Below, in pieces: positions 35,725-44,927 of a DNA stretch of 64,000 bases. Numbering within the stretch: position 1 is the stretch's first letter; each line of letters opens with the position of its first letter. Origin of the DNA: a virus; the IMG/VR virus record IMGVR_UViG_3300030061_003724, positions 1 to 64,000 of that record; one strand, written 5' to 3'. The translations under genes and the position numbers were made by a program. The notes under the pieces are model-generated. The model saw only the letters and a program-made list of their open reading frames with translations. It was not told the origin of the DNA and did no database searches.

Positions 35725-36885
35725 CTAATAAGTTTTTGTAGTATCGTCTTCTCCGTCTATTTCTTTTAATGCCTTTTCTATTCTTTCATCTACATTATCA
35801 ATATTACCATTCCAACCACCTTTATCTGTAAGTAGTTCTTTTAATATTTCTTTTTTCTTTTCAAGTTTATCATAATGTTCTCCATCATTTCCATTTTGAC
35901 CTATAATATCCATTCTTTTTTCATCTTCTTCTGTATAAGAAGGTGGGAATCCTCTTGCTTCAGGAGGTAATTCATTTTCTTCTTCAGGAATATCATGTAA
36001 AAGAGTTTCTTCTGCTTCACTTAAAGGTTTAACTTCAACATCTTCTCCATATAAATTTTCTCTATATTTTCTTTTAGGGTAAGCTTTATCAAAGGCAAAG
36101 TTAGCTGCTACTACTAAAGAAATAGCTAAAGGATCAAACACAAAAATTATAATAAGTAGCAGTATATTTATGATTTTATCCATTGGAGTACCGGTCAAAC
36201 CCGATAAATACTGCAGTGGTCCTAATTCAGCAGATACTTCGTTGTTGCTTTGAAGTTCCAATATTTTTAACTGGTATTTTTGAAGCGAGTCTGCCGCAAC
36301 TTCTCGTTTAGCATAGACATTTTTTCTATTTTCTTCTTCAACTTCAATACGTTTTTGTGATAATCTTAATTCTGTAGTTGAAATAGTTTGTCTAAAACCA
36401 GTAGCTGAGGCAGTGTCTCTTACTTGGATACTCGAAGCTTTTGAATTAGATAAAACGGATATATTCTCCGATATTCTTTTAAGCTCAGTATCAAATCTTG
36501 CCACATCTTCTTCATAAAATACTTTTTTGTTTTCTAAAAATTTAATTTCATTTTCAGCTATACTTAATTTACTGTATGTGTCTTGATAAGCAGCACTTAA
36601 AAAGCCATAGATACCCATACTAGTAATTAATACTAATATTACAGTAGCTACAGTAAGATAAGTTCTTAGCGTTTTATTAATTGAATCCCAATATTGGTAT
36701 AATAGAGAGGCAGTTACTAATTTAGCAAATTCTAAAGAACCAGCCATTATAATAACTTGAAATTGTGCCCCTGCAAATAACTTACTTAAACCATAAACCG
36801 AATAGAATGCCGCTGACGCACTTACTGACAAGGCAGAAAATGCGATAAGAAACGGAAACATTCCTTTTTTTACATTTTTCAACAT
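35725..36885 (-). CDS. multi-TM coiled-coil membrane protein
   Basis: Three N-terminal TM helices, long coiled coil, LIIIFVFDPLA TM segment, acidic tail. Confidence 0.75.
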   Translation of the reverse strand: MLKNVKKGMFPFLIAFSALSVSASAAFYSVYGLSKLFAGAQFQVIIMAGSLEFAKLVTASLLYQYWDSINKTLRTYLTVATVILVLITSMGIYGFLSAAYQDTYSKLSIAENEIKFLENKKVFYEEDVARFDTELKRISENISVLSNSKASSIQVRDTASATGFRQTISTTELRLSQKRIEVEEENRKNVYAKREVAADSLQKYQLKILELQSNNEVSAELGPLQYLSGLTGTPMDKIINILLLIIIFVFDPLAISLVVAANFAFDKAYPKRKYRENLYGEDVEVKPLSEAEETLLHDIPEEENELPPEARGFPPSYTEEDEKRMDIIGQNGNDGEHYDKLEKKKEILKELLTDKGGWNGNIDNVDERIEKALKEIDGEDDTTKTY

Positions 36886-36897
36886 ACTGTTTAGTTT

Positions 36898-37371
36898 TTA
36901 AACTGTGTCGTAATCAATGTACGAAATTTCTACCTCATCTCCACGCTCTAATGCTTCTGCTATTGGAGGGTAGATTCTTTTATATGCATCATTTGAGGCA
37001 CCTATAAATCCAGATTTTGATTTAGTAATGTTTTGTTGTTGGGTATCTCCTACTAGTAAGCATCCCATAGTATGTTCATCGGTATTACCTGTATGAATTA
37101 AAATATATTCAAATCCAGGTACGTCTCTTACCCATAGCATTCCTTTGTGAAAAGAACCATATTTTTTAGCATATCTACCATGATATCCTCCTACTTTTCT
37201 TAAAGTAATTTTATATGTTCCTTCTGGGATTCTAGTTTCACCCATTATTTTTTCTTCTCTATATTCATCTTCTAAAGTATAACACAAAAACTTTCTATCT
37301 GTTGTTACATCAAATAAAAGTCCATTTGTGCTATCTTTTTGAGAGCTTATTCTTAATACTTCTAGTTTCAT
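36898..37371 (-). CDS. DUF5675-like protein, candidate cell-wall enzyme/endolysin
   Basis: CYTLE, IPEGTY, ILIHTGN...T.GCLLVG. Confidence 0.7.
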   Translation of the reverse strand: MKLEVLRISSQKDSTNGLLFDVTTDRKFLCYTLEDEYREEKIMGETRIPEGTYKITLRKVGGYHGRYAKKYGSFHKGMLWVRDVPGFEYILIHTGNTDEHTMGCLLVGDTQQQNITKSKSGFIGASNDAYKRIYPPIAEALERGDEVEISYIDYDTV

Positions 37372-37373
37372 AA

Positions 37374-37946
37374 TTAATCTAATAAATAGCCATAAGGCGT
37401 TGCGTCAATATCTAATCCTATTTCCCAGTTTTCTAATGTTAAATCTACTGTCATATTTCTTTGAATATAAGGGTTATAAAACTCACCCTCTGCAGTCAAA
37501 CAAATTAATCCATTATGTACATCCATTACTTGAACATTATTCCAAACAACATATTCTTGATCACCTGGAATTTCTACTCCAGCATATTTACTATCTGGGT
37601 TTTCCCAAGTATAAGTTCCGATATCTAATAAAGCGCCATTGTCATCTCCATCAGAATCTAAAACATATAAAGCAAAGTGTTGTCTGTCTAATCTTGGTTC
37701 TCCATCATCTACTTGTAAATAGAGAATGAATATTTTTTTAATTACATTATCAACATATTTTACACCCCCAAATGATTTAATTTGAGCGTATCTTTCATAT
37801 GGGTCAAATGATTCACCATCTAAAGCGATTTCAATAACTGGAGTTAGATCTTCATCTTTTTCACAGCTAGTAAAAGAAAATAATACAAATAATAACATTA
37901 TAGGTGCCCATGGTCTTATCCAATATTCATAAAATAATTTTTTCAT
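37374..37946 (-). CDS. lipoprotein
   Basis: Signal peptide ending FTSC followed by acidic EKDED (Bacteroidota style). Confidence 0.7.
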   Translation of the reverse strand: MKKLFYEYWIRPWAPIMLLFVLFSFTSCEKDEDLTPVIEIALDGESFDPYERYAQIKSFGGVKYVDNVIKKIFILYLQVDDGEPRLDRQHFALYVLDSDGDDNGALLDIGTYTWENPDSKYAGVEIPGDQEYVVWNNVQVMDVHNGLICLTAEGEFYNPYIQRNMTVDLTLENWEIGLDIDATPYGYLLD

Positions 37947-37950
37947 TTTT

Positions 37951-38274
37951 TTACTTTTTAGCATTTTCAATTTCTAATTCTTTAACAACTTCTTTAAGTT
38001 CTTCTACATCTTTTTGTAGATACATAATTCTTAAATCTTGTTTTGCGTCATCAGGTAACGCTCCCATTTCTCCTCTGGGCCACTTAATTCTAAATTCTTC
38101 ATTAAGTGCAACGGCGTCTTGCATTCTAATTACATCTAATTGTAATTGAGCAATTTCAGCTTGTAAGGTAAACCATACGCCTGCTATTGAAACAATTCCT
38201 ACAACCATTCCGATAATAGCTTTAATATCTAAAGCAACTTTTGATTTGTCCGATAATTCTAATTGTTCTTCCAT
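37951..38274 (-). CDS. single-TM coiled-coil protein (i-spanin-like)
   Basis: N-terminal TM plus coiled coil; similar to 39339-39620. Confidence 0.6.
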   Translation of the reverse strand: MEEQLELSDKSKVALDIKAIIGMVVGIVSIAGVWFTLQAEIAQLQLDVIRMQDAVALNEEFRIKWPRGEMGALPDDAKQDLRIMYLQKDVEELKEVVKELEIENAKK

Positions 38275-38282
38275 TGTTAATA

Positions 38283-38317
38283 AAATAAATATTCCCGCAC
38301 CGTGCGGTACGGGAATA
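38283..38317 (-). terminator. stem-loop, probable intrinsic terminator
   Basis: TATTCCCGTACC-GCAC-GGTGCGGGAATA followed by TTTATTTT on the minus strand. Confidence 0.6.
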
Positions 38318-38333
38318 AATATTAAACACCTCC

Positions 38334-38564
38334 TTATTTTTTAATAATGTGGTACAAAACAAAGGCACCTACTAAACCTAGTAGTCCCTCTGCGTTCAAT
38401 CCTCCTAATATAGCCATAATATTATCAACTACTGATATTTCTGGCCAAAAAGGAATACCTGCTCCTGAGAATAGTACCTCTAGTACCACACCTAAAGCAA
38501 TTAAAGACACACCTATGTGAGTCAGTTTATCAGCCCAAGAGCCGATCTTGTTTAGAATTTCCAT
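38334..38564 (-). CDS. small membrane protein (holin-like)
   Basis: Two TM segments, 76 aa. Confidence 0.6.
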   Translation of the reverse strand: MEILNKIGSWADKLTHIGVSLIALGVVLEVLFSGAGIPFWPEISVVDNIMAILGGLNAEGLLGLVGAFVLYHIIKK

Positions 38565-38603
38565 AAAATTGGGGTTTTAGTTAAACAATACGATAACTAG
38601 CAA

Positions 38604-38843
38604 CTAGTTTTCTTCGTTGTTCTTCTTTCCGAAGATCTTTCCTACTTCAGCTATTCCGAATGAGCCGAGAGTAATGATTACAAATGAATTATAAATGTAA
38701 TCTTGTATTACGAGTTCTTTCCCGTAAATACCTGTAACGATATCTAATACAGCGAATATTACCATCACTGCAAAGGATAAAAATCCTACTACTGATTTTT
38801 CGTTAATGTCGTTGTCGTCTTTAAACAAATTTTTAAATGCCAT
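38604..38843 (-). CDS. small membrane protein (holin-like)
   Basis: Two TM segments and a charged C-terminus; late motif at 38902-38910. Confidence 0.6.
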   Translation of the reverse strand: MAFKNLFKDDNDINEKSVVGFLSFAVMVIFAVLDIVTGIYGKELVIQDYIYNSFVIITLGSFGIAEVGKIFGKKNNEEN

Positions 38844-38909
38844 AATAATTCTATTTAAATTAGTTAATAAAACTATTGAATGGAACCTTTTTGGTTGTGA
38901 TTATAAATA

Positions 38910-39335
38910 TTAGAATTTATCAGAGCTTTGTGCCTCTTTAATAGCTTCTTCAACATCTGATTTATCTGCTGGGAATTCTAGATCTAATCCAGCTTTGAAT
39001 TTTGTTTCAATTATGCCATCAAATATAATAAACATTGTTGGGGCCATTCTAACTCTGTATTTTTTAGTTGCTACAGGAGCATTAGCAATATTTACTCTAT
39101 AATAGTCTATATTTGGGTCATCTGCTAATTCTTTCCAATGAGGGTAACAATTAGCTTCATTAAATTTAGCCCAATATTCAACTACTACAACTTTACTATC
39201 ATCATCTCCAAATGCAGATTTTCCATTTATTACGTCTTCGTAATTTGAATCATCTAACCAATATTTTTCAGGTACGTCCTGTTGTCCAAATAAAATTGAG
39301 GGTATTGCTATTAGTAAAAAAAGAAGGTTTTTCAT
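38910..39335 (-). CDS. exported thioredoxin-fold protein lacking CxxC
   Basis: Signal peptide, VVVEYWAKFN, YRV..APT cis-Pro loop. Confidence 0.6.
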   Translation of the reverse strand: MKNLLFLLIAIPSILFGQQDVPEKYWLDDSNYEDVINGKSAFGDDDSKVVVVEYWAKFNEANCYPHWKELADDPNIDYYRVNIANAPVATKKYRVRMAPTMFIIFDGIIETKFKAGLDLEFPADKSDVEEAIKEAQSSDKF

Positions 39336-39338
39336 AGG

Positions 39339-39620
39339 TTATTTTTTCTGTAACTCGTAAAGACGTTCATCTATCTTCTCCAATTCCTCTAAAATTTTAT
39401 CTACGTCTTCTTGAGTATCCATTATTGTTTGTCGAACCAATTCATCTTTCAAATCATATTCAACTCTATCAATTACTGGTTCTGGAAGTTCTTTTGCTAG
39501 AGCTATATCTGCTTTTAATGTAAACCACATTAGTGCTAATGAAACTGCTCCTGCTAGTAACATTCCAATCGTTTTTAAGTCTAAAGTAACCTTAGTATCT
39601 TCGCCTATTTGTTTTGCCAT
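39339..39620 (-). CDS. single-TM coiled-coil protein
   Basis: KVTLDLKTIG..WFTLKADIA resembles 37951-38274. Confidence 0.65.
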   Translation of the reverse strand: MAKQIGEDTKVTLDLKTIGMLLAGAVSLALMWFTLKADIALAKELPEPVIDRVEYDLKDELVRQTIMDTQEDVDKILEELEKIDERLYELQKK

Positions 39621-39621
39621 T

Positions 39622-40857
39622 TTATCTAAATGTATAATTTAATCCAAATGAAGTTATAAACATTTTAGAATCCCACATTCTTGTATATTCTGTATCTGCA
39701 AAGATTCCTAATGATTTTGTTATTTTCCATCCAAAATTAGCTCCTGCTTGATAATCCCACCATTGATCACCTTCTGCTGCATCAGCTAATCCATATTGAT
39801 CCCAACTATCTCTAAATAAGTAAGATAATGGAACTCTACCATAATCATCTTTATCACCTCTTACATACTTGTGATAAGGTAAATATGCGGTTCCGTATAA
39901 GTGTAACCAGAAATTTGATTTATAATGGTAAAAATCAAATCCTACTACTGGACTTACTAATCCAAATTGAGATGTGTTACCTAAAATTTCTGCGTTATAT
40001 TGTGAAATTAATCTTTTGTAAGGTCCATCTCTAAATTCTAAATCTGAAGATGCGATTCTATTTCCGTTTGGATCCCACCAAAAATAACCACCAATATTTT
40101 GTTGTTGTCCTGTTACAGGATTTTCAATTGTTGTAGTATAATAAGCATCTTGATAACCATATTCATAAGCTAATTCATACCAATAATTTTGTTGTGAACC
40201 ATCATCATTTAAAGCACTAACCCAAATTTCATAAGGATTAACACCATAAACTCTTTCGTGTGTTCTATAAGCAGCACCAGCTGAAAGGGCAAATTTCTTT
40301 CCAATTGGTAATCTAGCTCTTACATCAGCAGAATTGTAATTGAAATCATAGGCGCCTTGAAATCGTGACTCTAATTTTACAATGTGGTATTTTCCAGTAT
40401 GTCTTAAGAAGTATCTTTGATTTTCCCACTCTTCACCTCTACGTCTCTCTTTTTCCCAATGGAATAGATATTCCCAACCTTGTACTGCAGAGGTAGGAGC
40501 TAATAAAGCGTTTTGTCTTTCTAAATTTTGATCTCCAGTCCAAAAGTTACCTGGTTTTCTTTCGTAATCAAATCTACCTAATTTACGAATACCAAATCCG
40601 ATTCTGTAATCTGAAGGGAAATACTCAGTTACATCTACTACTTCTGGTACATCATAAATTCCAGCACCATCTGGAGTTCTAATTAAATATTTTTTGTCTG
40701 ATGATTCGTATGCTGATCTATAATCACCAGCACCGTATACTGTAGCATATTTAAAGAAATCATTGTAAAATTCTTTGAATATGTTTTTCTTTTCCTTTTC
40801 TTGAGCCGTAGCAGGAATTGCTAGGAATAATGCAACAATTAATAAGAATATTCTCAT
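39622..40857 (-). CDS. putative outer-membrane beta-barrel protein
   Basis: Sec signal (ATA-Q), aromatic-rich alternating strands, C-terminal GLNYTF. Confidence 0.65.
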   Translation of the reverse strand: MRIFLLIVALFLAIPATAQEKEKKNIFKEFYNDFFKYATVYGAGDYRSAYESSDKKYLIRTPDGAGIYDVPEVVDVTEYFPSDYRIGFGIRKLGRFDYERKPGNFWTGDQNLERQNALLAPTSAVQGWEYLFHWEKERRRGEEWENQRYFLRHTGKYHIVKLESRFQGAYDFNYNSADVRARLPIGKKFALSAGAAYRTHERVYGVNPYEIWVSALNDDGSQQNYWYELAYEYGYQDAYYTTTIENPVTGQQQNIGGYFWWDPNGNRIASSDLEFRDGPYKRLISQYNAEILGNTSQFGLVSPVVGFDFYHYKSNFWLHLYGTAYLPYHKYVRGDKDDYGRVPLSYLFRDSWDQYGLADAAEGDQWWDYQAGANFGWKITKSLGIFADTEYTRMWDSKMFITSFGLNYTFR

Positions 40858-40911: not shown

Positions 40912-42624
40912 CTATCCATCACAGGAAACGCAATCAGCCATACGAGATCCTAAATCTCCTTTAATTACTGAATCAGTTCGTAAATAATAGAATGTTTTGA
41001 CACCTAACTTCCAACCTTCCATATGCACTTGATTGATCCATTTTGGTGAATCATTAGGGTCAAATGATAAATTTAATGATTGAGTTTGGTCAATATATTT
41101 TTGTCTTTCAGCTGCTTGTTTTACTAATTCTAATTGGTTTGTTTCTGAGAAAGTTAAAAATACTTCTTTTTCATCTGCCGTTAAAATATTATCTGGTAGA
41201 TTTAATACTGATCCACCTTCTTGTAACATTTGATCCCACCATTTATTTTTATTTTCTCCTTTAGATTCAAGTAACGCTTCTAATACTTTATTCTTTCTAA
41301 TAAAAGTACCTTTAGCACCGTTAAAAGTATAAACATTAGCAGGTAAAGGTTCAATACCAGCAGAAATACCACCACAAATTACAGAATTTGATACTGTAGG
41401 GGCTACAGCAAGCAGGTGAGTATTTCTCATACCAGTACCTTTACACCATAATGGTTCACCATATTCTTGAGCTAATTCCATAGAAGCAGATTCAGCTTCC
41501 ATTCTAATTTTATTAAAAATATTTCTTGTATGAACTGTAGATGCTACTGATGCAAAGGGTAAATTTTTCTGTTGTAAAAATGTATGCCAACCCATTACAC
41601 CTAAACCTAATGCTCTACCTTTTCTAGCATGGTTATGTGTTCTTTTTAATGAATCTTTACCATTTGATTTATCAATAAATTCTTGCATTACACCATCTAA
41701 AAACCAAATTGCAGTTTGAATACAATCTGTGTCTTTATATTCTTCCCATTTAGCTAGATTTAAAGATGATAAACAACAAATAAAAGAATGTTCTTCATCT
41801 GTAAATAATGTAATTTCAGAACAAATATTAGTCATAGAAACATCTAAATTGTGCATTCTATAAGCTATAGGATTATTTTTATTTACATTATCCTTAAACA
41901 TAATATAAGGTTCTCCTGTTTCCATTCTTGCTTTAAGAACTTTAGCCCATCTATTCATTGCTTCAGGATCCCTAGCTTCTAGTTTTCTCATAAATGAATC
42001 ACCTACAACAACACACTGATGTAAGTTAAGACATTGTCTATTAGGATCTCCTTTTGGTCTTCTTATTTCTAAAAATTCATCTATATCTTGATGTTCAATA
42101 TCTAAATTAACAGAAGCAGCACCTCTTCTAACATTACCTTGATTTGTTGCAATAATAGCAGAATCATATATTTTACACCATGGTACTACTCCTTCTGATT
42201 TTCCATTGCCAGAAATTTGTGTTCCACGTGGTCTAATACGAGATACACTAATACCTACCCCTCCACCAGAAGCGGTGAGTTTCATTAGTTCTGCGTTAGT
42301 TAAACCAATTCCACGTATTGAATCAGGTGTATCTATCCCAAAACAACTTATTGGTAAACCTCTATCAGTTCCCATATTAGAAATAACTGGTGAAGCTAAT
42401 CCAATCCAACCATTCCAAATATATTTAAAGAATTTATTCGCTAATTCAGGTTTTTTAAGTCTATCTGCTGATGCATTAGCTACCCTTTTATAAGCTTGTT
42501 TTACTGTTTCACCTGGGAGTAAATATCCTTTAGATATTGTTGCTAAAGAAATTTCATCCATCCACTCAGGATATTCTTTTCCTGGTGTCCAATCACTATA
42601 ATCTGCTATTAAATTATTATCCAT
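40912..42624 (-). CDS. nrdA: ribonucleotide reductase class Ia alpha subunit (no ATP cone)
   Basis: PISCF, GGGVG, RRGA, TNICSEI, CCLSSLNL, APTVS, YYLR, CVSCDG. Confidence 0.96.
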   Translation of the reverse strand: MDNNLIADYSDWTPGKEYPEWMDEISLATISKGYLLPGETVKQAYKRVANASADRLKKPELANKFFKYIWNGWIGLASPVISNMGTDRGLPISCFGIDTPDSIRGIGLTNAELMKLTASGGGVGISVSRIRPRGTQISGNGKSEGVVPWCKIYDSAIIATNQGNVRRGAASVNLDIEHQDIDEFLEIRRPKGDPNRQCLNLHQCVVVGDSFMRKLEARDPEAMNRWAKVLKARMETGEPYIMFKDNVNKNNPIAYRMHNLDVSMTNICSEITLFTDEEHSFICCLSSLNLAKWEEYKDTDCIQTAIWFLDGVMQEFIDKSNGKDSLKRTHNHARKGRALGLGVMGWHTFLQQKNLPFASVASTVHTRNIFNKIRMEAESASMELAQEYGEPLWCKGTGMRNTHLLAVAPTVSNSVICGGISAGIEPLPANVYTFNGAKGTFIRKNKVLEALLESKGENKNKWWDQMLQEGGSVLNLPDNILTADEKEVFLTFSETNQLELVKQAAERQKYIDQTQSLNLSFDPNDSPKWINQVHMEGWKLGVKTFYYLRTDSVIKGDLGSRMADCVSCDG

Positions 42625-42631
42625 TTATTTA

Positions 42632-43915
42632 TTAATTACATACTCTTTTACCACCTACTGTTGTAGTTGTACAAGGAGTTGATTTAATTGTTACTGTGTT
42701 TACTAGTGGGTTTCCACTTTGTTTTGCTGGGTTAGTAGCCCATTCTGTTGTATATTTCCAACTATTATCGTCAGAATATATTGTTCCATCCATAGGTGCA
42801 CCTGATTGATTCCAATATACACAATGCATTTGTCCATTAAAATAATTATAAGTCATTCTAAATTGACCATTTGTAGGAACTGGTTTTATTCCTGTTGGAG
42901 GGTTTAATCCTGGGATAATAATAAAATCCGAACCTGAATTTGCATGGGAATTAGATTCAACATCTGCTTTACCTCCATTTGCTGGAATAACCCAAGTTTG
43001 ATCTTTTCTATCAACACCCCAAGTTGCTTTAACTGTCATGTCTTGGTCTGTATCGTTAATAAATGTTACTCTTACTGTAACAGGATCTGATTCTAATTTT
43101 TCTACTACACTTTCTGCTGTTACTCTTACATTTGAGATAGTATATTCTGATCCACCTTTACATAAATCAGACCAACTATTACAATTAGGGTCACTATAAT
43201 TATATAAATTATCAGGATTAGGTGAAAATCCTTGCCATAATGAAGCAACAACTTTATATCCTTTTTCCATGTTTTCTTTTAAACCATCTAAGCTAGTTAA
43301 TCCACTTCCTGGACCTGCTTCATTATTTTTAAAATCATATACTACTACACTATTATCTCCTTGAACATAAGTAGTTGTCATATTAGTATAATCATCATTA
43401 AATTCAGTTACAATATCAAATGGTAATGAAGGATCTATTTTACTTGCATCTACAATACCAGTACCAGTTGTTCCAGTAAAACAAGAAGTATCTCCTCCTA
43501 AAAATGCCCATTGATAGTTTTGAGTTTTATTTATGTGTATTGTTGCCTGAGTAGCTACATTTCCATTAGTTTCTAAAAAATCTATTTCATCACAACAGTT
43601 TGTACAACCATCACCAGAATCACAATATTCTGTTTCATTCATAACTAAATAAAAAGTTGCATTAACAAACTTTTGACCTGCTAATTTTGAAATATCTACT
43701 GTTGCTGAGATTTTAGAAATATTTTTATATCCTTGAGCAGAACGAACTCTACCCGGATTAAAAAATACCTTATCCTCTCCAATTACAGGAGCACCTTGAT
43801 CACATTTTTGATTGAAGTCAAGATTAAAAGTAGGGGTAAATTCTTGTACTGAAACTTCCGAATTATTACATCCTATAAAAATAAGAGATAATAAAATAAT
43901 TAAATAATTTTTCAT
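42632..43915 (-). CDS. lipoprotein with a GH7-like (clan GH-B) glycoside hydrolase domain and an unknown C-terminal domain
   Basis: Lipobox FIGC; VDISKL, NATFYLV, YCD, CCDEIDFLETN...TIH, IDPSLPFDIVTEF, YVQG, GYKVVASLW, ISNVR. Confidence 0.7.
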   Translation of the reverse strand: MKNYLIILLSLIFIGCNNSEVSVQEFTPTFNLDFNQKCDQGAPVIGEDKVFFNPGRVRSAQGYKNISKISATVDISKLAGQKFVNATFYLVMNETEYCDSGDGCTNCCDEIDFLETNGNVATQATIHINKTQNYQWAFLGGDTSCFTGTTGTGIVDASKIDPSLPFDIVTEFNDDYTNMTTTYVQGDNSVVVYDFKNNEAGPGSGLTSLDGLKENMEKGYKVVASLWQGFSPNPDNLYNYSDPNCNSWSDLCKGGSEYTISNVRVTAESVVEKLESDPVTVRVTFINDTDQDMTVKATWGVDRKDQTWVIPANGGKADVESNSHANSGSDFIIIPGLNPPTGIKPVPTNGQFRMTYNYFNGQMHCVYWNQSGAPMDGTIYSDDNSWKYTTEWATNPAKQSGNPLVNTVTIKSTPCTTTTVGGKRVCN

Positions 43916-43940: not shown

Positions 43941-44927
43941 TTAAAATAATGATGCGGCATCCCAATTTTGAACACCTTTTGAGTAATTAGTTACTCTATT
44001 TGCAAAGAAATCTGTATGTTGTTTTCCACCTGATAGATTATCAAACCAACTCATTCTTTGTACTGCTTCTTTATCTATTCCATTTACAATTGATCCATAT
44101 CCTAGATCACTCATTTTTGTATTTACTCTATGTTTAATAAATGATATTAAATCATATTTTGGGCATCCATTTAAGTCACCCATCTCATAAACTTTATCAA
44201 TAAAATCTAATTCTAATTTTAAAGATAATCTAGCTGCTTCTTCAATATCAGCTTTTAATTTAGGTGTATCTAGTTCAGGATGTTCTTTAAGTAAAGTTCT
44301 AAATAACCAACACCCAGCATCTGAATGTAGTGATTCGTCTCTAATACTCCACTCAACTATTTGTCCTACTCCTTTTAGTTTATTATCTAGTTTAAATGAT
44401 AATAAAACAGCAAAAGAAGAAAATAAATTAACTCCTTCTGTAAATGCAGAAAAGATTGCTAATGATTTAGCTCTTTCATGCCAATTAGGAGTTCCATCAT
44501 GAGCATCTCTTACATTCATTAATGTTTCAATTTTAGCCATTGTGGTTTCATCCTCTAAAAATTCTGCAAAATCATCTAAACCTAATTCTTCGTTTAGTAA
44601 AGAATAAGCTTCCGCATGAATAGTTTCGAAAGCTCCAAATGTTACTGCCATTTTAATTACTTCAGGTTTTCTAAACCACTTTGTAACTAATGATGACCAA
44701 TAATCATTTACTACAGTCTCTGTTTGAGCAAAACCTTTTAGAATAGAACCTATAATATTTTTTTCTGTGTCAGATAAGTTTTGCTTCCAATCGTTTACAT
44801 CTGACATCATTGGTACTTCAGTATGAAGCCAATGCGCTTGTTGTTGTTTCATCCAGTAATCATGTGCTTCTGGATACTCAAACGGTTTATAAACGATACG
44901 TTCCTGCAATAAAGATGTTTTTGCCAT
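43941..44927 (-). CDS. nrdB: ribonucleotide reductase class Ia beta subunit
   Basis: ETIHAEAY, EGVNLFSSF, RDESLH, DFF..RVTNY. Confidence 0.96.
   Translation of the reverse strand: MAKTSLLQERIVYKPFEYPEAHDYWMKQQQAHWLHTEVPMMSDVNDWKQNLSDTEKNIIGSILKGFAQTETVVNDYWSSLVTKWFRKPEVIKMAVTFGAFETIHAEAYSLLNEELGLDDFAEFLEDETTMAKIETLMNVRDAHDGTPNWHERAKSLAIFSAFTEGVNLFSSFAVLLSFKLDNKLKGVGQIVEWSIRDESLHSDAGCWLFRTLLKEHPELDTPKLKADIEEAARLSLKLELDFIDKVYEMGDLNGCPKYDLISFIKHRVNTKMSDLGYGSIVNGIDKEAVQRMSWFDNLSGGKQHTDFFANRVTNYSKGVQNWDAASLF

Follow-up and report, generated by a model that had tools for sequence, protein, structure and literature searches.

We describe a viral gene that encodes a lipoprotein with a small cellulase-like domain. 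It lies between the ribonucleotide reductase (RNR) genes nrdB and nrdA in the stretch of DNA that was analysed (hereafter the window), 64,000 nt of the 81-kb IMG/VR virus record IMGVR_UViG_3300030061_003724. We propose, with a probability of about 0.68, that the product is an exported, lipid-anchored, disulfide-rich retaining beta-glycanase, a mobile phage cargo of the glycoside hydrolase family 7 (GH7) lineage that has become fused to a beta-sandwich. The carrier is a marine flavobacterial-type phage. All large open reading frames (ORFs) of the window except one are on one strand, and the closest isolate by nrdA DNA is Flavobacterium phage vB_FspM_immuto (72%). The gene and its parts are as follows.

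42632..43915, minus strand: whole gene, stop codon included, encoding the 427-aa lipoprotein in which a GH7-like glycanase is fused to a beta-sandwich (ORF list, translation)
43868..43915, minus strand: signal peptide with lipobox, MKNYLIILLSLIFIG followed by C16 (translation); the Halieaceae copies and almost all viral homologs share the lipobox
43112..43846, minus strand: catalytic domain, residues 24-268, a minimal clan GH-B beta-jelly roll of the GH7 lineage (structural alignment)
43571..43588, minus strand: catalytic motif E110-I-D112-F-L-E115, with putative nucleophile, helper Asp and acid/base (translation), aligning to ELDIWE of 8POF
43535..43537, minus strand: His127 of TIH, counterpart of the His in the GH7 motif TPH, aligning to AVH of 8POF
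42635..43102, minus strand: C-terminal beta-sandwich, residues 272-427 (about 155 aa), found elsewhere as a standalone lipoprotein

The ORF list and translation give an intact frame of 427 aa at exactly 42632..43915 on the minus strand. The protein starts with MKNYLIILLSLIFIGC, which has a basic n-region, a hydrophobic h-region and a lipobox with Cys at position 16; lipoprotein signals were called by sequence pattern here and throughout. The catalytic residues E110, D112, E115 and H127 were confirmed by translating 43535-43588. The translation also contains, in order, VDISKL, NATFYLV, YCD, CCDEIDFLETN, TIH, IDPSLPFDIVTEF, YVQG, GYKVVASLW and ISNVR. The lipobox, the motif series and the flanking genes are all as an earlier note on this DNA had described them from the sequence. 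That note had also called the domain a miniature GH7-like jelly roll of about 210 aa; the miniature size holds, and structural alignment extends the domain to about 245 aa (residues 24-268). Codon usage agrees with its view that the gene is no very recent import, with a codon adaptation index of 0.82 in both domains against 0.72 +/- 0.09 across the 62 ORFs of the window, and GC content at third codon positions of 0.10 for the gene against 0.165 +/- 0.063. By codon adaptation, both halves of the gene are typical of the phage or better adapted. The exact gene recurs across marine and seawater metagenomes of about a dozen studies, where runs with a low share of words (X21-X24) were left out as habitat evidence. 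Moreover, contigs from four RNA-library studies cover the gene, and an 844-nt one covers the junction of the two domains; these contigs are compatible with transcription without proving it, and may stem from contaminating DNA.

Conservation of the putative active site is strict. In alignments of 21 and 27 homologs, E110, D112, E115, H127, Y97-C98-D99 and C108 are invariant, and W227 is conserved in at least 90% of the aligned homologs. Since E110, D112, E115 and H127 do not vary over a divergence down to about 30% identity and across phage lineages with different hosts, catalysis has probably been retained. The ExDxxE triad that the earlier note had taken as a GH7 signature is certainly present, but it is not specific to GH7: of the 16 bacterial GH16 domains that we extracted from Halieaceae-family genomes (L082-L097), all except one carry it as E-[IL]-D-x-x-E (EIDIME, EIDFME and similar), and ExDxxE is therefore no discriminator of GH7 by itself. 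On the sequence alignments, the landmarks that discriminate are YCD, C-x-E-x-D-x-x-E-[TA]-N, T-x-H, SLW, SN[IV]R and the short spacing from YCD to the catalytic strand, as in 8POF. The ExDxxE, His, YCD and the Trp of SLW expected of a GH7 protein are all found in the phage domain.

With regard to sequence similarity, phmmer with the single protein against all PDB chains gave a sole match, 8POF (E 1.7e-5), which is entitled 'putative glycosyl hydrolase family 7'. With a profile built from 21 homologs, the match improved to E 1.4e-12, with similarity from the 'VDxSxL' strand through 'SLW', and no GH16 chain or other fold came after it. An exhaustive phmmer search with the phage protein among 1.84 billion representatives found 71 relatives; a profile search of a 5.8-billion-protein set reached no further ones. 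Among the most distant relatives found directly in this way are P0087, from the haptophyte Scyphosphaera apsteinii, and P0091, both above the Pfam GH7 gathering cut-off (50.4 and 45.6 bits). P0077, from the ichthyosporean Pirum gemmata, reaches 22 bits with PF00840, short of the 27-bit cut-off, and P0083 is likewise slightly under it. In hhalign, the family matched the Pfam-verified GH7-type proteins with 99.7% probability (E 3e-25) over 195 columns, a comparison set that was recruited by similarity to the query and so favours it. The family matched the 16 bacterial GH16 domains with 88.9% (E 2.4e-6) over 77 columns, confined to the active-site strands, and the GH7-type set matched them with 23.5% (E 8.6e-4) over 72 columns. 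The better score of the phage family against GH16 lends weak support to the link between GH16 and GH7 that the earlier note had suggested.

Structure prediction is consistent with these results. The AlphaFold model of the N-terminal domain is confident (pLDDT, the per-residue confidence score, mostly above 90) and shows the beta-jelly roll of clan GH-B. Foldseek with this domain listed GH7 structures first (6SU8, 6e-10; 8POF, 1.5e-8) and GH16 only from rank 33. By structural Z alone the two families are tied; the alignments cover 217-229 residues with 18-25% identity for GH7, within chains of 370-440 aa, and 182 residues with 16% identity for GH16. The predicted model settles the clan, GH-B, and not the family. 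In the ESM Atlas the order of clusters was three 100%-viral unnamed ones, a haptophyte GH7 cluster (0.86) and then GH16 clusters (0.82-0.85). The tree contains no canonical fungal GH7 sequences, since a search with P0087 had brought in just three further GH7-type proteins; in it, the phage/bacterial family is sister to the eukaryote-type GH7 proteins, and each group has support 99/98. In short, sequence similarity, fold and catalytic residues are those of GH7, and the Pfam GH7 model and the usual GH7 size of 370-440 aa, or about 320 aa in short forms, are not matched. Judging from the sequence comparisons, the N-terminal domain belongs to the GH7 lineage and not to GH16, either as a deeply divergent GH7 subfamily or as a sister family in clan GH-B.

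The remainder of the protein is an unrelated beta-rich domain, as had been noticed earlier. Residues 272-427 alone fold in prediction as a confident all-beta sandwich (pLDDT 92.9). No Pfam family was matched by this domain, PF06355 (aegerolysin) included, its ESM Atlas leads were weak, and it is assigned to no family here. Structural scores against aegerolysins (OlyA/PlyA, Cry34Ab1, RahU) fall in the range of a common arrangement, and MoHrip2/thaumatin-like and GH64 barrel domains score equally. The predicted complex of the N-terminal and C-terminal domains scored 0.01, which is evidence neither way. Elsewhere the C-terminal domain is a standalone lipoprotein of 160-200 aa with its own lipobox; such loci were gathered with P0024 as the query. 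The flanking genes and the arrangements in relatives are listed below.

43941..44927, minus strand: nrdB, RNR small subunit, upstream flank (PF00268, 1.5e-61)
40912..42624, minus strand: nrdA, class I RNR large subunit, downstream flank (PF02867, 1e-98)
42634..43108, minus strand: about 475 nt inserted in frame, by DNA alignment with the closest relatives L003 and L002
L003 and L002 (N-terminal domains 98% and 90% identical): GH7-like gene alone, 271-272 aa, between nrdB and nrdA, stopping just before nrdA
L100: standalone gene for the C-terminal domain between nrdB and nrdA
L099: standalone gene for the C-terminal domain immediately after nrdA
L009 and L010: GH7-like gene, then directly the gene for the C-terminal domain, after nrdA

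This slot, which holds different lipoproteins across relatives, is a hot spot for interchangeable lipoprotein cargo. In the gene of the window, two cargo genes of that hot spot are evidently fused in frame, which is new here. The same fusion is found in P0002 (427 aa, 96% identical) and P0004 (about 60% identical). Phage immuto has the order RecA-exonuclease-DnaB-nrdB-nrdA as in the window, with nrdB and nrdA only 10 nt apart; this shared synteny with directly adjacent RNR genes indicates that the gene was inserted between nrdB and nrdA, as the earlier note had it. A metatranscriptome contig (run X16) links nrdA to nrdB at a 42624/43984 junction without the 1359-nt cargo gene, which suggests that relatives without the insert co-occur, though its flank of only 28 nt is below the reliability guide. 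The gene adjoins nrdA or nrdB, mostly at 4-300 nt, in 43 of the 74 loci, from 6 of 14 de-replicated lineages. This adjacency persists even with an RNR that shares no more than about 21% identity with that of the window phage, and the gene order varies.

The unannotated family lives almost entirely in phage genomes. We found 74 IMG/VR loci against 5 loci in 185,579 prokaryotic species genomes (one genome each; pattern and tblastn); divergent copies can escape the genome scan, which relied on a single peptide pattern. All five are in metagenome-assembled genomes (MAGs), four of Haliea/Halioglobus, one of a planctomycete and none of Bacteroidota. Among 50,697 GenBank phages tblastn found no match, and the best structural match in BFVD is an uncharacterized protein of the marine Virus NIOZ-UU157. 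Almost every viral copy opens with a lipoprotein signal, in two styles of lipobox, '...F[GS]CNNK' at a GC content of 0.30-0.33 and '...LAAC[ST]K' at 0.37-0.47, and the Halieaceae copies are lipoproteins too. In the tree these Halieaceae copies fall inside the family clade beside one phage lineage, with weak support (82/89). The bacterial copies adjoin uvrB, purK, peptidases, transporters and regulators, and are not in polysaccharide-utilisation loci.

Other architectures occur within the family. Some phage lineages add unannotated modules to the GH7-like lipoprotein (L008:6001-7536, L009:3163-4671, L059:5464-6861, L065:5470-6879), of about 220 aa at the C-terminus in some and about 170 aa between lipobox and catalytic domain in others; a Pfam scan of these extra modules gave no match. 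The planctomycete MAG copy (L080:7485-8861) and P0031, P0039 and P0161 carry dockerin-type (and FG-GAP) modules in place of the lipobox, and the dockerin-type members make their own branch in the tree. A member without signal peptide is found in L006 (IMGVR GVMAG-S-ERX556045-73_000001), labelled as a giant-virus MAG. Its neighbours are a dihydrofolate reductase, a phrog_13226 protein and an ORF of more than 880 aa that runs off the locus, and its PHROG matches suggest that the contig could belong to a phage instead of a giant virus. We also considered that the versions without lipobox (L006, P0010-14) are virion depolymerases, and rejected this because L006 has the dihydrofolate reductase neighbour and no evidence of a structural module.

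Directly after nrdA, the window has a cluster of genes for exported and membrane proteins, as follows.

39622-40857, minus strand: 411-aa signal-peptide protein, aromatic-rich, ending in ...FGLNYTFR
35725-39620, minus strand: run of small exported or membrane proteins after nrdA
39339-39620 and 37951-38274, minus strand: two paralogous proteins with transmembrane segment and coiled coil
38910-39335, minus strand: secreted thioredoxin fold (PF00085, 3e-5)
36898-37371, minus strand: DUF5675 protein (PF18925, 1e-26)

The run at 35725-39620 also holds two proteins with two transmembrane segments each and a 386-aa protein without family, and it looks like a lysis or envelope cassette. DUF5675 has been proposed as a C82-like peptidase lysin (bioRxiv 10.64898/2026.04.11.717860). 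PDB sequence searches with the DUF5675 protein and the 386-aa neighbour found nothing. The 411-aa protein has no Pfam, PHROG or NCBIfam family; its homologs are in L002 (49%), L100 (51%) and L004 (30%), and it could be a phage-encoded outer-membrane beta-barrel. In the relative L004, the GH7-like gene itself lies inside a cluster homologous to the window genes at 35725-40857, with the 411-aa signal-peptide protein, the transmembrane coiled-coil proteins, the secreted thioredoxin fold, the proteins with two transmembrane segments and the 386-aa protein. A part for the GH7-like protein as the main endolysin of the phage is unlikely because of the lysin-type DUF5675 gene in the downstream cluster.

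In the mechanism that we propose, the gene would be transcribed together with replication and nucleotide-metabolism genes, and the product would be exported by the Sec/signal-peptidase II pathway and lipidated at Cys16. The eight Cys residues of the N-terminal domain may form up to four disulfides. The active-site cleft is expected to be open because the tunnel loops of cellobiohydrolases are absent, and the enzyme would act there like a small GH7 endoglucanase. In the double displacement that cleaves its beta-linked glycan, E110 would serve as the nucleophile and E115 as the acid/base, assisted by D112 and H127. As for the biological role, we lean, at slightly less than even odds, toward an enzyme that trims a glycan in the envelope, surface or matrix of the infected cell itself, for egress, receptor destruction or superinfection exclusion. 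The envelope role is favoured because the family is phage-specific and nearly always lipid-anchored, its slot is shared with another lipoprotein, its neighbours are of envelope or lysis type and its bacterial copies lie outside polysaccharide-utilisation loci. The harvest of external polysaccharide is a possible role of lower probability, and other roles make up the remainder. A further version seems doubtful: here the family would be a minimal, basal GH7-lineage branch linking GH16 with GH7, and the protein, instead of harvesting food as a cellulase, would be a phage-specific envelope glycanase fused to a membrane- or glycan-binding sandwich.

Several points weigh against our reading, besides the favourable recruitment of the GH7 comparison set and the contaminating DNA that may account for the RNA-library contigs. 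Neither the query nor any of the 27 core family members, the latter scanned at E up to 10, matches PF00840 or PF00722, NCBIfam gives no family for the query, and PHROGs gives just one weak match of unknown function. The Gln of the GH7 motif 'YCDxQ' is absent from the phage family, which has YCD[AS]G. The preference for the envelope role is circumstantial, the relatives with dockerin resemble ordinary extracellular carbohydrate-active enzymes, and the nearest characterised enzyme is an endoglucanase, which fits ordinary extracellular glycan degradation.

The classification, rather than the mechanism, would change if the domain represented a distinct, unnamed family of clan GH-B between GH16 and GH7. 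This is consistent with the failure of the Pfam GH7 model on all 27 members, with the family's own clade on long, well-supported branches (99/98) from the Pfam-positive GH7-type proteins, with its better match to the GH16 profile (88.9% against 23.5% for the GH7-type set) and with its size of about 245 aa, nearer to that of GH16. On the other hand, the phage domain directly and significantly resembles, in sequence, a GH7 enzyme of known crystal structure over the stretch between the 'VDxSxL' strand and 'SLW', its alignment to the GH7-type set (E 3e-25) extends over 195 columns against 77 for GH16, and the GH7-specific motifs YCD, CxExDxxE[TA]N, T-x-H, SLW and SN[IV]R are present. We consider a separate family unlikely, though still a serious candidate.

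The earlier note had explained the gene as an auxiliary metabolic gene (AMG) for a polysaccharide-degrading host, in which a surface-displayed beta-glucanase frees oligosaccharides from algal or plant polysaccharide and feeds the infected host for phage production. Lipid-anchored surface glycanases are typical of glycan foraging in Bacteroidota. The likely hosts, Flavobacteriia and Halieaceae as judged from nrdA similarity and MAG titles, are marine polysaccharide degraders, the closest characterised relatives are endoglucanases (8POF), some non-viral members bear dockerin modules, and the gene recurs in seawater metagenomes of many studies. However, homologs of such genes are normally abundant in hosts, whereas this family is almost entirely viral and its homologs are not common in the host clade, with none of the five genome matches from Bacteroidota. 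The neighbours of the bacterial copies (uvrB, purK, peptidases, transporters) are not those of a polysaccharide-utilisation locus, and the same slot alternatively holds a lipoprotein that does not look enzymatic. In addition, few acidic residues follow the lipidated Cys (CNNSE, CNNKS, CTKTT), which, compared with the export signal of Bacteroidota, probably offers no argument for surface exposure. Together with the L004 copy, which lies in a membrane/exported cluster with a lysin-type DUF5675 gene, the near-exclusive phage distribution and the position of the rare bacterial copies turn us away from the AMG explanation, which we now regard as unlikely, though a live alternative to the envelope role.

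Much less probable is a non-catalytic lipoprotein that binds a glycan or receptor with the jelly roll as a lectin, for example in superinfection exclusion like Llp of T5. Exclusion is a classical function of phage lipoproteins, the concanavalin-type jelly roll is widespread among lectins and a lipoprotein unlike an enzyme is also found in the slot, but E110, D112, E115 and H127 would hardly have stayed invariant at about 30% identity and across phage lineages in a protein without catalysis. Finally, an ordinary bacterial-type GH16 laminarinase or lichenase misread as GH7-like has the same clan and fold, ExDxxE and the GH16 clusters of the ESM Atlas list in its favour, and is largely refuted by the lack of any PF00722 match in the family (a model that finds GH16 in 10 of 41 Halieaceae-family genomes plus 5 control genomes), by the absence of GH16 chains from the PDB sequence and profile searches, by the hhalign match restricted to the active-site strands and by the shorter and less identical structural alignments. 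The earlier note had been ready to give up its proposal for best matches in bacterial GH16 or a fold other than the jelly roll; the best profile matches proved to be GH7 and the fold that of clan GH-B.

GH7 is a workhorse family of cellulases, and a sizeable, unannotated branch of phage lipoproteins in marine and freshwater environments changes the known range of this lineage. If the envelope-glycanase reading is true, GH7 gains a reservoir in prokaryotic viruses and phages gain a new functional class of envelope enzyme. A catalytic lipoprotein that recurs beside RNR genes and envelope- or lysis-type genes points to an uncharacterised step at the host envelope. What the window contributes to the picture of the family is its fusion to a further cargo lipoprotein and its connection with the envelope cluster. 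The fusion of two lipoprotein cargos from one hot spot is a clean example of modular cargo evolution and suggests that both parts work on the same target. Moreover, with its small size of about 245 aa the domain offers a scaffold on which the catalytic requirements of the GH7 core can be studied, and the family bears on the divergence of GH16 and GH7 within clan GH-B.

The canonical GH7 motif series runs along the whole domain in the same order as in the phage domain. Canonical fungal GH7 enzymes, Cel7B/EG I (1EG1, 6SU8) and Cel7A (1CEL), have the same clan GH-B jelly roll and gave the top Foldseek E-values (6e-10). These enzymes are larger (370-440 aa), their long loops building a deep cleft or a tunnel, and they are eukaryotic, glycosylated and often combined with CBM1; the HMMER single-protein and profile searches of the PDB gave no direct match to a canonical fungal GH7. 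Members of GH16, such as plant VvEG16 (5DZE) and bacterial ZgLamA (4BPZ), share the clan, a similar size and ExDxxE with the phage domain, but lack its YCD, T-x-H, SLW and SN[IV]R landmarks and gave no HMM match. The short GH7-type proteins of haptophytes and protists (P0087, P0077) are reached by phmmer and provide the nearest named ESM Atlas cluster (0.86); they differ from the phage family as a separate, well-supported clade of longer, eukaryotic proteins that are not lipoproteins. In ocean metatranscriptomics, GH7 has served as a marker taken to be exclusively fungal or eukaryotic (PMC12323267, 'GH7 genes (exclusively fungal)'; PMC9038920), and our literature search found no paper on phage GH7-like lipoproteins.

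The only solved protein that sequence search finds for the phage domain is RsSymEG1 (8POF), described in its title as a 'smaller GH7 endoglucanase', from a protist symbiont of the termite Reticulitermes speratus. RsSymEG1 is a eukaryotic, secreted protein of 321 aa and not a lipoprotein, whereas the phage protein is a lipoprotein in which a domain of about 245 aa is followed by an extra C-terminal beta-sandwich. RsSymEG1 keeps the Gln of YCDAQ, where the phage family has Gly, and the phage family, unlike RsSymEG1, is not detected by Pfam PF00840. On the other hand, both have the catalytic stretch (ELDIWE and EIDFLE), the following [TA]N, the His of T/A-x-H and the Trp of SLW, and both have the short spacing from YCD to CxExDxxE that sets the short GH7 proteins apart from Cel7A and Cel7B.

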